From: Clostridia bacterium
GTDB taxonomy: Bacteria; Bacillota; Clostridia; Oscillospirales; SIG627
Assembly (NCBI GenBank): GCA_017439965.1
Contig: JAFSID010000076.1
Coordinates: 1-57,699 of the forward strand
Length of the DNA stretch: 57,699 nucleotides
Direction of reading: 5' to 3'
Below, piece by piece: positions 25,014-37,250 of the stretch. The position numbers and the translations under genes were made by a program. The notes beneath the pieces are model-generated. The model did not search any database and had not been told where the DNA came from. It worked only from the letters and a program-made list of their open reading frames with translations. Within the stretch, counting starts at the first letter, position 1. Each line of letters begins with the position of its first letter.

Positions 25014-25081
25014 CCCACTCCCCTCTCGGAGAGTGGGCGGCAATCAAAGAGCATAAACGAGCTTTGTGTTCTTTGATTGCC
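25014..25081 (+). repeat. H1-H2 double-hairpin element, copy 1
   Basis: CCCACTC..GAGTGGG, then GGCAATCAAAGAGCATAAAC-GAG-CTTTGTGTTCTTTGATTGCC. Part of a roughly 310-nt block duplicated at 27082. Confidence 0.85.
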
Positions 25082-25197
25082 GGTGACGGCAAAAACGGTA
25101 CTTATTCGGTACCGAGCGTAACCATGCCGTTTTGTCTTAAGGCTTTTACAAAACGGCTTAAACAAAAGCCAGAATTTAATAGGAGGTCATTTAAGAT

Positions 25198-27064
25198 ATG
25201 ACAAAAAGAAGCACTAAGCACTCTCTTCTTTTGAGTGCACTTTCCCTTCTTCTCTGTGCATCTATGCTTATCGGTACAACGTTTGCATGGTTTACCGACA
25301 GCGTAACGAGCACGGGAAACAAAATTCAGTCAGGTACGTTGGTGCTTGATCTTGAGCTTCTCACAAAGGACTCAAACGGCGATTACAACACCTGGAAATC
25401 CATCAAAGAGGACAAAACACCTATTTTCAACTATTCAAACTGGGAGCCGGGTTATACCGAGGTTAAGGTTCTCAGAGTACAGAACGAGGGCACACTTGCA
25501 CTCAAGTGGTACGCTAAGTTCGTAACCGATGCAGGCGTTAAGGTATCCGAGCTTGCAAAGGTAATCGACGTATATGTATGTCCCAGCGAAGCAGCGGCAA
25601 TTGCAATGCCTGACGGACGTGACCTTAAGGATTACACGCACGTCGGCACTCTCGACACCTTCCTTAACACGATTACCGAAACCACTAAGGGCACTCTTAT
25701 GCCCGAGGGTGACGTTAACAACAAGGACGAGGCTTATCTCGGAATTGCTCTTAAGATGCAGGAGTCTGCCGGCAACGAATATCAGAATTTAGACCTTGCA
25801 GGCGCATTTGACATTCAGATTCTCGCAACTCAGCTTGAGTATGAAGAGGACAGCTTCGATAAGGAATACGATAAGCCCGCTACATATCCCGCTATGTCAA
25901 CCGCTGTTACAGTTCCCGACACTGCAACAGCTCCCGTAACACTCAAAACAGACGACCTCTCCGTTGAGCTTCCCGCTGACCTTTTGAACTCCCTTCCCAG
26001 CGAGGTTGAGTCTCTCAAATTAGGTCACACCGATCCCGTTGTAAATGCGGATACCGAGTCTGTTACCTTTGATTCGGTTGAAATCTACGACCAGGACGGA
26101 AACGTCGTTGACCTTGAAGCATTAGGAAACACCGAGGCGTTTACCGCTACTCTTCCCGTAAGTGATTATTTTGATGACGGAGACGTAGTTAAGATTTTCC
26201 ACGACGGAGCTCAGATAAGTGAGGCTACCGTTACAAACGGCTCTATCACATATACAGCCACTCACTTCTGTGAGGTTACCGTTTCCAAAAAAGATATTCG
26301 TTACGGTAGTATTTTCCGACGGCTTTACCAAGAACTTTAACTCCCTCGGTAAAGCTATGAGATTCGGTTACAGTGGCGGAGCTCAGGAAAAAATCATAGT
26401 TAACGAAGACATTACCGAGGAAATGGGTTATCTCGAGGGTAACATCGTCTGCGGTAAAGAGGGTGGCGTTACCATCACTAACACAATCTACGATGAGTGG
26501 GTTTACTGTGACAGCACCAACTTTACTATCGGTGAAGGCGTTACCTACGACGTATCAGGAAACTTAAGCGGTCTCTTTGTTTACGGTGACGACTGCGTTA
26601 TAAACGGTACGGTTATTACTGACTGCTACTATCAGAGATATGCAGGCTCAAAGCTTACAATCAACGCTCCAGGTAGCATGAAGGTGAACACCGAAACCTT
26701 TATCCTTCGTTATACCGATTCTGATGCAAACGCAGGTATATACATCAACGGTGACAACGACGATTCAACCGTTGAGTTCAACCTCGCAGTTGCATACTTC
26801 TATCAGGGTATGATTTCCGCTAAGGATGCTACTCTCAAGGTAGGCACCTACTGGCAGACCAACGAAACAGACGGTATCGGTAGTGCAAACCTCGTTCTTG
26901 ACAACTCAAAGCTCACCGTTACAGTTAACGAGCACAACTTCAAGGCAACGGGCAACTCAAACGTTACCTTAAAGAACGGTAGTGTATTAGACGTTGCGGG
27001 CGGTATAACAACCACCAACGAAATCGTTGTTGATGAAACCAGCACCGTAAAAAGCGCAAGATAA
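25198..27064 (+). pseudogene. TasA/camelysin-like N-module + beta-helix-like C-module, split by a +1 frame change at an A6 run
   Basis: ORF 25198-26340 (SipW-type signal, WEPGYT, GNEYQ, ATQ motifs) continues in the +1 frame as ORF 26219-27064. That second ORF has no RBS, start or signal peptide of its own. The junction is at AAAAAA 26287-26292. The joined length matches paralogs 27267 and 29549. Confidence 0.7.
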
Positions 27065-27084
27065 ATTACACAAATTTATGCCTT

Positions 27085-27152
27085 CCCACTCCCCTCTCGG
27101 AGAGTGGGCGGCAATCAAAGAGCATAAACGAGCTTTGTGTTCTTTGATTGCC
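27085..27152 (+). repeat. H1-H2 double-hairpin element, copy 2
   Basis: Identical core to copy 1. Confidence 0.85.
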
Positions 27153-27266
27153 GGTGACGGCAAAAACGGTACTTATTCGGTACCGAGCTTAACTATGCCG
27201 TTTTGTCTTAAGGCTTTTACAAAACGGTTTAAACAAAAGCCAGAATTTAATAGGAGGTCATAAAAA

Positions 27267-35387: not shown

Positions 35388-35420
35388 CGGTAAAGCCTTA
35401 TGAGAAAGGAGGCCGACGCT

Positions 35421-37079
35421 ATGAAAAAGCTTTATAATGAATACTTCAAGGTTAACAATGACGGTAAGCTTACGGAGAAAGTATTTTACGCCCGTATAAG
35501 TGCTTCGGTTGCCTTTATAGTTTTTTGTATGTTTGCAATGTCTTTTGCGGCATTTGCCTTCTTCAGCACGTCAATTAATTCTACGGGAAATATCATTAAA
35601 AGTGCTACGTTTGATACCGTAATTAATATCACAAACGTAACGACGCAAAAGACTATGGTCGATGCCTCTACCCTTTCGAGCGAAGAGACAAATACTCAAG
35701 CCGAAGCAAGCAACGAGGAAGCAACGGATGACGTTACTGCTGAGACCGCCGATGAGGAGGTTAAGTACGTACAGATTACCGAAATTCTCCGCGAAAACAT
35801 CCTGCTTGAGCAAATCGGTGACCATTCGGTTTCCGCTCTTCTCAAAAAGGGTGACAACGTATTCAAAATTGATAAGGCACCAACCGAGACTAATGCAGAC
35901 ACGGGCTTCTGTATCATTTATATCGAAAACTGTGACACCGTGTATTTCACTCAGCAGATTGGCGTTGACAAGGATGCCGACGGACAGGTTACCGACAGCA
36001 TAACCTTCACGCTCAACCTCTCGGCTGATGCAAAAGCCTACGTCATATCTCACTGGGGTACCTCATACCATTACGGATATGCAACCTCTACCCTCTTCTT
36101 CAACACCGAAGAAACCTTAAACGATAATGAGCTTTACGTACTTGACGGTGACGTAATAAGCGTTCCTTTGACGGTTGTTCCCGAGGAGGAAGAGCCTGAT
36201 ACGTCTGATGAAACGGATAATACCGAGACTCCCGATGAAAACGATACTCCTTCTGATGATACGGATAATACGTCCGACGAGAAGGAAGCTACCGAAGAGC
36301 TCTCGATAACAATCAAAGAGGGCGACAGACTTGTATTCATAGCCGAGGACAATAACACAACGATTGAAAAGCTTATGGCATACAATGATATCAAGGATGC
36401 CGATAAGATTTTGATAGGTCAGGTAATCAAGATTCCTCCTGCTGATTGGGAAATCCCAGAGGATTATACGCCCGCTGAGGATGATACCGAGACTGATACA
36501 CCCGAGTCAACCGACACTCCCGAGTCAACTGATACACCCGAGTCAACCGACACTCCCGAGTCAACTGATACACCCGAGTCAACCGACACTCCCGAGTCAA
36601 CCGACACTCCCGAGTCAACTGATACTCCCGAGTCAACCGACACTCCCGAATCAACGGATACTCCCGAATCAACCGACACTCCCGAGTCAACGGACACTCC
36701 CGAATCAACGGATACTCCCGAGTCAACCGATACTCCCGAGTCAACAGATACTCCCGAGTCAACCGATACTCCCGAGTCAACAGACACTCCCGAGTCAACC
36801 GACACTCCCGAGTCAACCGATACTCCCGAGTCAACAGATACTCCCGAGTCAACCGACACTCCCGAGTCAACCGACACTCCCGAGTCAACCGACACTCCCG
36901 AGTCAACCGACACTCCCGAGTCAACCGACACTCCCGAATCAACGGATACTCCCGAGTCAACGGATACTCCCGAGTCAACCGATACTCCCGAGTCAACCGA
37001 CACTCCTGAGTCAACCGACACTCCTGAGTCAACCGATACTCCCGAATCAACGGATACCTCGGAAAGCTCAGCTGAGTAA
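35421..37079 (+). CDS. SipW-type-signal protein with a LysM domain and a (DTPEST)31 acidic repeat tail
   Basis: ATG 35421 lies 8 nt after AGGAGG. ...AAFAFFSTSINSTGNIIKSATF. LysM: ITIKEGDRLVFIAEDNNTTIEKLMAYNDIKDADKILIGQVIKIP. The repeat tail runs to the stop. Confidence 0.8.
   Translation: MKKLYNEYFKVNNDGKLTEKVFYARISASVAFIVFCMFAMSFAAFAFFSTSINSTGNIIKSATFDTVINITNVTTQKTMVDASTLSSEETNTQAEASNEEATDDVTAETADEEVKYVQITEILRENILLEQIGDHSVSALLKKGDNVFKIDKAPTETNADTGFCIIYIENCDTVYFTQQIGVDKDADGQVTDSITFTLNLSADAKAYVISHWGTSYHYGYATSTLFFNTEETLNDNELYVLDGDVISVPLTVVPEEEEPDTSDETDNTETPDENDTPSDDTDNTSDEKEATEELSITIKEGDRLVFIAEDNNTTIEKLMAYNDIKDADKILIGQVIKIPPADWEIPEDYTPAEDDTETDTPESTDTPESTDTPESTDTPESTDTPESTDTPESTDTPESTDTPESTDTPESTDTPESTDTPESTDTPESTDTPESTDTPESTDTPESTDTPESTDTPESTDTPESTDTPESTDTPESTDTPESTDTPESTDTPESTDTPESTDTPESTDTPESTDTPESTDTPESTDTPESTDTPESTDTPESTDTSESSAE
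36495..37052 (+). repeat. 31 tandem 18-bp units encoding DTPEST
   Basis: 558 nt = 31 x 18. Units differ only at synonymous third positions (GAT/GAC, ACA/ACT, CCC/CCT, GAG/GAA, ACC/ACT/ACG/ACA). Confidence 0.9.
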
Positions 37080-37127
37080 GAAGATTCTCAAAGTAAATAT
37101 CCACAGCGGATATCATTAAATTAATAT

Positions 37128-37151
37128 GCCGTCCGCAAAAATGCGGACGGC
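37128..37151 (+). terminator. hairpin after the LysM gene (weak terminator or attenuator)
   Basis: GCCGTCCGCA-AAAA-TGCGGACGGC, a 10-bp stem. The tail is AATTATATTT. Confidence 0.4.
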
Positions 37152-37185
37152 AATTATATTTAACCGAATTACACAGTTAAAACTC

Positions 37186-37250
37186 CCCACTCTGCTTGAG
37201 TGGGCGGTAATCAAGGAGCATAAAGACGCTTTGTGCTTCTTGATTACCGC
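37186..37250 (+). repeat. H1-H2 double-hairpin element, copy 5 (divergent, with compensatory changes)
   Basis: CCCACTC-TGCTT-GAGTGGG, then GCGGTAATCAAGGAGCATAAAG-ACG-CTTTGTGCTTCTTGATTACCGC (22 bp including 2 wobble pairs). Confidence 0.8.

Follow-up and report, generated by a model that had tools for sequence, protein, structure and literature searches.

What does a short double hairpin do that stands five times, always in the same orientation, within a single gene cluster? The question is raised by contig JAFSID010000076.1 of a Clostridia bacterium (57,699 nucleotides, hereafter the window), where such an element is interspersed among the genes of a predicted surface-fibre locus. On the sequence evidence, the element is a structured RNA of ~70 nt formed by two adjacent hairpins, H1 and H2. 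Its motif family is new and its general kind is familiar, that of a conserved cis element within operons; the action in cis is assumed from its position only. The original prediction had placed five copies on the coding strand. Direct reading bears them out, and they are listed below with the bit scores of a covariance model (CM) of the family:

25014..25081, + strand, copy 1: H1 25014-25037, unpaired C 25038, H2 25039-25081; CM 73.3 bits
27085..27152, + strand, copy 2: H1 27085-27108, H2 27110-27152; CM 76.9 bits
29244..29307, + strand, copy 3: H1 29244-29263 (GCAA loop), H2 29265-29307; CM 69.1 bits
32162..32225, + strand, copy 4: H1 32162-32181 (GCAA loop), H2 32183-32225; CM 71.8 bits
37186..37250, + strand, copy 5: H1 37186-37204, H2 37206-37248; CM 67.2 bits

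The five copies fold as predicted, with H1 followed by an abutting H2 of 19-22 bp, at -44 to -46 kcal/mol and with folding z-scores of -7.0 to -8.7 against dinucleotide shuffles. Their reverse complements reach -33 to -41 kcal/mol and are 4-12 kcal/mol weaker than the sense strand. H1 starts 120, 21, 16, 13 and 107 nt past the preceding stop codon in copies 1 to 5, respectively. Four H2 pairs of copy 5 are unlike those of copies 1-4, with the pairing preserved at each of them (C-G to U-A, A-U to G-C, G-C to G-U and G-U to G-C). Copy 2 with 116 nt downstream is 97% identical to copy 1 with its flank. The confinement of the element to the fibre locus also holds: with the filters of the CM search turned off, the window contains exactly five + strand matches, at 67-77 bits. 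On the minus strand, the five copies appear as palindromic mirror images with 31-44 bits, and everything else in the window reaches at most 19 bits. The 11-mer GGCAATCAAAG occurs 10 times in the window with at most one mismatch, against 1.4 expected, and 8 of the 10 occurrences fall within copies 1-4.

The element is widespread in related genomes. The 21-mer pattern GGCGGYAATYAARGRGCATAA, taken from the element core, was scanned over one genome per GTDB species and returned 108 stretches, of which ~102 truly form the double hairpin, while six lack a hairpin and match by chance. The true matches come from ~90 species-level genomes, all of them metagenome-assembled genomes (MAGs) from animal and human guts, and belong to Acutalibacteraceae, Oscillospiraceae, Faecousia, Lachnospiraceae and unclassified Clostridia; Clostridium perfringens is not among the pattern matches. 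The first foreign copy was provided by a sortase-anchored comparison with one distant relative (L003/L004). The locus L003 (sortase 47% identical) is syntenic, and there a copy lies between a TasA-like gene and the sortase gene and carries compensatory changes in H2. The covariance model, R1, was built from 93 copies, foreign and from the window, with a hand-written structure. Searches with R1 covered the window and 8-kb blocks around the pattern matches, and whole genomes were covered by the pattern. Within the 8-kb blocks R1 recovered further copies, 42 of them without a pattern match, which brings these loci to two to four copies each. Loci L005-L008 contain no copy detectable by R1 apart from a borderline match of 29.8 bits in L006/L007. 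A locus has two to five copies, always on one strand, and the genome-wide pattern matches fall in fibre loci only. Five MAG contigs (L012, L048, L054, L084 and L088) stop at or within the element, probably since assembly breaks at a multi-copy repeat, and copy numbers per genome are therefore likely to be underestimated.

The pairing is conserved across the family. In a MAFFT alignment of 93 copies, 96.1% of the stem cells pair, and sliding the 3' partners by 1-3 columns lowers this value to 39-55%. In 150 model-aligned copies the values are 98.0% for all stem cells and 98.3% for those of H2. Compensatory changes, with both sides altered, occur in 24 of the 28 pairs (H1 9/9, H2 15/19). None of the shuffles reaches any measure of pairing or covariation of the 150-copy alignment, which is itself fitted to the model and hence biased to structure; the MAFFT result serves as the independent check. 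Among 4150 stem cells, 431 hold G-U pairs and 36 hold A-C (12:1). The roles of G-U and A-C swap on the opposite strand, which identifies the coding strand as the one that folds. This agrees with the original prediction of a strand-specific, RNA-level element whose G-U pairs make the fold work in the mRNA sense. The covariation of the stems in homologues and the single orientation of the copies, which are in fibre loci and not scattered, both speak against a plain repeat.

The conservation of sequence is unevenly distributed over the two hairpins. H1 has medians of 9 bp, -15.3 kcal/mol and 63% G+C in the 150 copies, and its loop is a tetraloop in 81/150 (UNCG in 30/150, UUCG in 23). The sequence of H1 is free and its fixed part is the basal CC...GG alone. 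A single unpaired C separates H1 from H2, which has medians of 19 bp, -26.5 kcal/mol and 41% G+C and reaches up to 22 bp in the window. The junction and the lower part of H2 are near-invariant (GGCGGCAAUCAAAG...CUUUUGAUUGCYGA): the residues G55, G57, C59, G60 and G61 are each kept in at least 146/150 copies, and the 5' arm CAAUCAAAG of lower H2 pairs with CUUUUGAUUG. Across families, identity is ~95-100% in the lower 11 bp of H2 and at the junction, in contrast to the diverging H1 and proteins. Since this core also holds in the 42 pattern-independent copies, ascertainment is not its sole cause. Of the 150 copies, 123 have G-U at the wobble position in AAAG/CUUUU, 23 have G-C and 4 have A-U. 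Upper H2 covaries freely, and its loop ranges from 3 to >160 nt, with insertions of 40-160 nt being tolerated. A third hairpin, H3 (GCYG-loop-GGC, overlapping the 3' end of H2), has at least 5 bp in 40% of the copies against 24% of the shuffles; for this modest enrichment it was rejected as a part of the core and is regarded as a facultative feature.

Downstream of H2 a G is present in 138/150 copies and an A in 117/150, followed by an A-rich, U-poor stretch. The 12 nt past H2 contain a mean of 2.5 U and 5.3 A, and a U-run occurs within 20 nt in 15/150 copies. In the register of the full hairpins the element is thus not a canonical intrinsic terminator, as had been proposed: a stable, G+C-rich H1 is present, but it is followed directly by CGGCAAUCAAAG, which is not a U-tract, and the terminator scan calls none of the five copies. 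The lack of a U-tract stands for the sequence 3' of the full H2 and has to be qualified for H2 itself, whose 3' arm CUUUGAUUG is U-rich and lies opposite an A-rich 5' arm, so that a weak terminator is conceivable.

The position of the element relative to genes was determined with an iterative hidden Markov model (HMM) for the TasA-like N-terminal domain, applied to all open reading frames (ORFs) of the loci examined. This replaced longest-ORF heuristics, which are noisy due to antisense shadow ORFs. TasA-like genes of at least 400 aa were taken as large and those of <260 aa as small, and a gene was counted as followed if the element lies within 200 nt. TasA-like ORFs are found in 86 of the 95 element loci, and all 277 are on the strand of the element, with none opposite. 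The element comes after 86/112 (77%) of the large TasA-like genes and before 27/104 of them, and after 2/110 (2%) of the small ones and before 23/116. The copies had been described as following genes of secreted proteins; this stands and can be sharpened to large, SipW-dependent TasA-like genes. H1 starts at a median of 20 nt past the stop codon (interquartile range 14.5-33), and a median of 45 nt lies between H2 and the ribosome-binding site and start codon of the following gene. The genes downstream of the element encode TasA-like proteins, SipW peptidases, FctA-type pilins and sortases.

The fibre locus of the window contains the following features besides the five copies:

22197-22225, promoter-like site (promoter scan)
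~22399-23139 and 23200-23685, + strand, two SipW-type signal peptidase genes (NCBIfam TIGR02228, 73.2 and 88.9 bits, cut-off 51.85)
23812-24894, + strand, g0, TasA-like, assigned solely by the custom TasA-like HMM
25198-26340, plus 26219-27064 in another frame, + strand, gA, TasA-like, with SipW-dependent signal peptide
27267-29228, + strand, gB, TasA-like, with SipW-dependent signal peptide
29549-32149, + strand, gC, TasA-like, with SipW-dependent signal peptide
32545..37079, + strand, gD-gG, tightly packed: BsaA-like small subunit, Cna_B protein, unknown protein, LysM protein
37127-37152, canonical terminator hairpin (terminator scan)
37270..38052, + strand, class B sortase gene (Pfam Sortase; homologues named class B sortase)
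38060-38084, canonical terminator after the sortase gene (terminator scan)

One copy of the element lies in each of the stretches between g0 and gA, after gA, after gB and after gC, and none lies between the tightly packed gD-gG. By its sequence signatures the locus is a SipW/TasA-type surface-fibre operon: SipW-type peptidases and proteins with the SipW-cognate signal peptide or the TasA (Peptidase_M73) N-terminal domain are both present. TIGR04088 scores 30.2, 26.1 and 23.8 bits for gA-gC (cut-off 19), Pfam Peptidase_M73 and LRR_5 match in the fibre genes, and PF12389 scores 28.3 and 32.1 bits (cut-off 22.5). The custom TasA-like HMM matches the four fibre genes with E = 4e-32 to 5e-60. Sequence and profile searches of the PDB with the N-terminal domain returned no TasA structure, and the TasA-like fold is thus predicted. 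The large fibre proteins have leucine-rich-repeat, adhesin-like C-terminal parts. The exact sortase protein of the window is not on record, and its homologues are from Clostridia such as Acutalibacter; together with a T-box leader, they mark the window as Firmicute chromosome. A phage tail-fibre region or other phage origin was rejected, as a search of 2.9 million viral contigs with the core 21-mer was negative.

Several further observations concern the same locus. The first large fibre gene is split into the overlapping ORFs 25198-26340 and 26219-27064 in different frames. The first ORF contains the TasA-like N-terminal domain, with 46% identity to the next paralogue, and the second is unlike that paralogue; the split could be a frameshift, a pseudogene or a sequencing error. 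At 29375-29530, in the interval from copy 3 to gC, there is a 52-codon ORF with a strong ribosome-binding site, in a stretch apparently missing in the close relative L099. Between copy 4 and gD, a strong promoter-like sequence is found at 32440-32468 (TTGCCT, 17 nt, TATAAT, with TG). An 18-nt tandem repeat at 36366-37165 encodes the C-terminus of the LysM protein, (TPESTD)n, in ~32 units, and the loci L001 and L002 have the same repeat with variant units. Past the sortase, at 38172-41647, are tandem paralogue pairs of Exo_endo_phos (81-87% identical stretches) and Peptidase_M14-like genes (up to 96%), which are syntenic in L001 and L003.

The original prediction recognised no known Rfam family in the element, and the searches of Rfam 15 with the window and 18 other loci are likewise negative. 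At the gathering score, the whole window yields a T-box at 11198-11441 alone. With E up to 5, the region 22000-38500 yields three chance-level matches, none on the + strand copies, and the eighteen further loci (125 kb) yield tRNAs only. A literature search by sequence string and by the topic of TasA, SipW and sortase, together with a survey of 224 motifs, gave no description of the motif. The T-box leader, on the minus strand at 104.5 bits, is upstream of the minus-strand ORF 9845-11065.

Three traits of the element are unusual, namely a sequence-invariant regular helix, the exclusive association with large SipW-dependent fibre genes and the several copies per operon. The targets of ANTAR proteins consist of two small hairpins with hexaloops, in each of which positions 1 and 4 are A and G. 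The element was rejected as such a target, since H1 mostly has tetraloops (81/150) and the loops of H2 vary from 3 to >160 nt. In riboswitch aptamers, conserved unpaired nucleotides in junctions and internal loops form the ligand pocket. This class was also rejected: the conserved positions of the element are in a regular helix, and among its unpaired residues conservation is limited to the inter-hairpin C and the G-A that follows H2. The "downstream element" RNA motifs L17DE, ftsZ-DE and Mu-gpT-DE, which come from surveys by comparative genomics and are in Rfam, are similar in being conserved motifs just 3' of one class of highly expressed genes, with unknown function. The element differs from them in sequence and fold and in its multiple copies per operon, and has no Rfam match at E up to 5.

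The element may well be an intercistronic signal for mRNA processing or stability, which punctuates the polycistronic fibre mRNA and favours the upstream cistron; this reading is preferred, tentatively. RNase III would cut the long, perfect duplex of H2, or RNase Y would cut beside H2 at the conserved single-stranded G-A. Alternatively, or additionally, the weak upper H2 with its U-rich arm might cause part of the transcripts to end there. The 3' exonucleases would then be halted by the stable H1, alone or together with H2, and the message of the abundant large subunit would outlast the downstream accessory cistrons (small subunits, SipW and sortase). With a copy at every junction, each large paralogue would obtain a stable transcript of its own. 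The location at the 3' ends of large genes, the single copy per junction, the stable H1 of free sequence beside a long duplex, and the G-A in an A-rich stretch together suggest mRNA punctuation. Likewise, two to five same-strand copies per locus fit a signal acting at each junction and are more than a processive signal needs. In the window, copy 4 is the one terminator-like hairpin called on the coding strand from gC to the promoter-like site at 32440-32468, and the packed gD-gG are free of elements, which is in favour as well.

Several known systems resemble the proposed signal in part. The length of H2 suits RNase III, and this ~two-turn, 98.3% paired helix between co-directional genes has the form of an RNase III-type duplex, at which cleavage is putative. 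The R-sites of phage T7 and the sites of Bacillus phage SP82 are intercistronic RNase III hairpins of ~two turns, with a sequence common to the copies, and the upstream product keeps a protective 3' hairpin. The element shares with them the several ~two-turn hairpins per polycistronic transcript, one per junction. It differs in being a chromosomal element of a single type of cellular operon, conserved in ~90 species, in its separate G+C-rich H1 and in the lack of an internal loop in H2. Repetitive extragenic palindromic (REP) sequences and intercistronic stem-loops, as in malEFG of E. coli and puf of Rhodobacter, stabilise upstream cistrons. The stable hairpins of malEFG and puf, between co-transcribed genes, are like the element in the proposed block of 3' exonucleases, which sets product ratios. 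REPs occur in hundreds of copies genome-wide and in both orientations, in contrast to the element, which is in fibre loci only and in the sense orientation only. In the sipW-bsaABCRSD operon of C. perfringens, a structure 3' of bsaA results in a short, abundant sipW-bsaA mRNA and a 7.3-kb read-through mRNA; elsewhere in this organism, processing by RNase Y stabilises the pilA2 mRNA (PMC7395162). By analogy, this operon may be seen as a precedent for graded mRNAs: it also combines SipW with a TasA-like protein and has an RNA structure right past the major subunit gene. On the other hand, the bsaA structure is a single, predicted ordinary terminator, whereas the element combines two hairpins with an invariant core, is not followed by a U-run and recurs after each large paralogue.

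Other features weigh against a processing or stability signal. The invariance of the 11-bp lower H2 and the junction goes beyond what a generic stabiliser or RNase III site needs for structure only, and a generic signal leaves the restriction to one operon type unexplained. Approximately 20/150 copies (~13%) are upstream of sipW or pilin-like genes, in a conserved leader after two small ORFs. A specific binding partner would better explain why lower H2 is invariant, why the element is restricted to one operon type and why some copies are in a leader. Copy 5 lies between the canonical terminator at 37127-37152 and the start of the sortase gene at 37270. Moreover, a ~72-nt block with copy 5 is missing in the closest relatives, L001 and L002 (sortase 90% and 82% identical), which have no R1 match. 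When window positions 37153-37259 are compared with L001:165-290 and L002:285-412, the flanks align, and the upstream terminator hairpin and the sortase start are kept. A loss of copy 5 in L001 and L002 seems more likely than a recent gain, because of the four compensated differences and the L003 copy at the same junction.

The leader copies stand in a setting of their own (L059:2433-2870, L012:4234-4500, L091:1093-1360 and ~17 further loci). The two preceding ORFs are small membrane ORFs of ~47 aa and ~76 aa. The ~76-aa protein ends in RRRLWLSLIPFVKY and occurs in 27 loci; Pfam gives no match to it. For the conserved ~100-nt leader 3' of the small ORFs, RNAalifold predicts two helices abutting H1. 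This sequence has no Rfam match, is too alike among loci for a covariation test and may be a larger regulatory leader. Some fibre loci also contain, on the same strand, genes for a tyrosine recombinase (~10 loci: L012:942-1781 and ~9 others), a TetR-family regulator (18 loci: L038, L059 and 16 others) or an 89-aa CxxC...CxxC protein of unknown function (11 loci: L050 and 10 others), which are possible regulators or signs of locus mobility.

The readings that compete with an mRNA processing or stability signal differ in the part of the element to which they assign the function. A specific partner may dock at the junction and lower H2, be it a locus-associated RNA-binding protein or the machinery of transcription or rRNA processing; taken as a whole, this is a minority reading that nevertheless deserves consideration, and the two readings are not mutually exclusive. 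For the rRNA-processing variant, the 3' arm of H2 in copies 1-4 (25063-25081 in copy 1), UGUUCUUUGA, resembles what is presumably the Firmicute rrn boxA, UGUUCUUUGAAAAC, for which a string search of the literature gave no usable source; the family consensus GUGCCUUUUGA is less similar to it than UGUUCUUUGA. The narrower form, rather unlikely, is a dedicated trans-acting factor, a locus-encoded or co-evolving RNA-binding protein, which would recognise the junction and lower H2 including the G-U wobble and co-control the translation or stability of the flanking cistrons, for instance as feedback on subunit supply. It would account for GGCGG, CAAUCAAAG and CUUUUGAUUGCYGA being near-invariant even in the 42 pattern-independent copies while upper H2 and H1 covary freely, for the wobble being kept as G-U in 123/150, and for the exclusive link to one operon type. 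The tolerance of apical insertions of 40-160 nt places the functional part at the base of H2, and the loci contain conserved proteins of unknown function, the 89-aa CxxC...CxxC and the 76-aa membrane proteins. However, no candidate protein accompanies most copies in the 8-kb blocks, and a fully paired A-form helix offers little sequence-specific recognition. If the docking reading is true, the large fibre genes would be switched or balanced together, and the element would be the cis half of a new post-transcriptional regulon of the SipW-dependent surface fibres of gut Clostridia. The qualified U-tract leads to another reading, an improbable one, in which the element is a leaky intrinsic terminator: upper H2 would be the hairpin, UUUUGAUUG the U-tract and CAAUCAAAG the A-tract, H1 would protect the 3' end, and partial stops would grade the expression of the operon. 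Upper H2 has 9 bp with 3-4 basal G-C pairs followed by 5 U in 9 nt in 124/135 copies, and the canonical terminator at 38060-38084 has the same layout of A-tract, stem and U-tract. Copy 4 precedes the promoter-like site at 32440-32468, no other same-strand terminator-like hairpin being called between them, and the bsaA terminator with its read-through is a precedent (PMC7395162). The upper hairpin is, however, weak: its median is -9.3 kcal/mol, and the window copies range from -6.3 (copies 1, 2 and 4) to -9.3, against -14.3 and -22 for the real terminators of the window. Its U-tract is fixed as UUUUGAUUG and not variable as a U-run would be, loop insertions of 40-160 nt should cripple a terminator, and copy 5 is directly past a strong terminator and 20 nt ahead of a gene.

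The opposite effect on transcription has also been considered, and is very unlikely: a processive antiterminator of the put or EAR type, that is, an RNA that binds the polymerase and sustains transcription over the whole of the long fibre operon. An RNA of this kind would fit the conserved sequence and the restriction to one operon type, and some copies are in a leader, but there is no match to Rfam, which includes EAR. The HK022 put RNA has ~70 nt and two stem-loops and acts in cis, and the bulges, non-canonical pairs and triplex of its stems form the interface with the polymerase (PMC9378689). The element has the same plan of two adjacent stem-loops with conserved sequence, and Gram-positive cis-acting RNA antiterminators exist, such as canT of Tn916 (PMC11658703). 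The irregular stems of put touch the zinc-binding domain of the polymerase, whereas both stems of the element are regular and perfectly paired. A single put or canT per operon is located downstream of the promoter, unlike the two to five elements per locus, mostly at the 3' ends of large genes, and copy 5 is downstream and not upstream of the terminator at 37127-37152. Finally, the repeat might act as DNA, which is highly improbable: as a mobile repeat similar to REPs or miniature inverted-repeat transposable elements (MITEs), as an attC-like single-strand recombination site that shuffles fibre cassettes, or as a passenger of tandem duplication. Copy 5 in a discrete ~72-nt block missing in two relatives, the 97% identity of copies 1 and 2 with their flanks, the tandem paralogues, the tyrosine recombinase genes and the contigs that often end at the element are in line with such an origin. 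Nevertheless, a dispersed repeat of the REP/MITE type was rejected: the five copies of the window are all in the fibre locus, in the 95 loci the strand of the element is that of the TasA-like ORFs (277 to 0), and the two orientations never occur in one locus. The element has a fixed place with respect to stop and start codons, there are no copies elsewhere in the window or in the 2.9 million viral contigs, and genome-wide pattern matches lie only in fibre loci. The 12:1 excess of G-U over A-C and the compensatory changes imply selection on pairing in the transcribed sense. The attC sites of integrons lie next to an integron integrase and form an imperfect hairpin whose base contains the cores RYYYAAC and GTTRRRY. 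The element was rejected as an attC site, as on direct reading the base of H2 (GGCAAUC...GAUUGCC) lacks these cores and a tyrosine recombinase is present in ~10/95 loci. A dimeric DNA-binding site was rejected as well, the spacing between the arms varying from 20 to 180 bp, and no isolated core half-sites (possible DNA operators) are found in the window. A neutral passenger is ruled out by conservation across ~90 species with 10-20% protein identity.

The element points to a post-transcriptional layer shared by ~90 species, which would set the stoichiometry of the fibre subunits. SipW/TasA-type fibres are structures of the biofilm matrix and of adhesion, and the loci concerned are large, multi-paralogue ones in uncultured Clostridia of gut and rumen. 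The element is a candidate for a new Rfam family, and its covariance model is a usable marker for annotating fibre loci in metagenomes. It could also show how bacteria read sequence-invariant, fully paired helices. Should it merely be a stabiliser or processing hairpin, it would still be a clean and unusually conserved case of operon punctuation outside phages.

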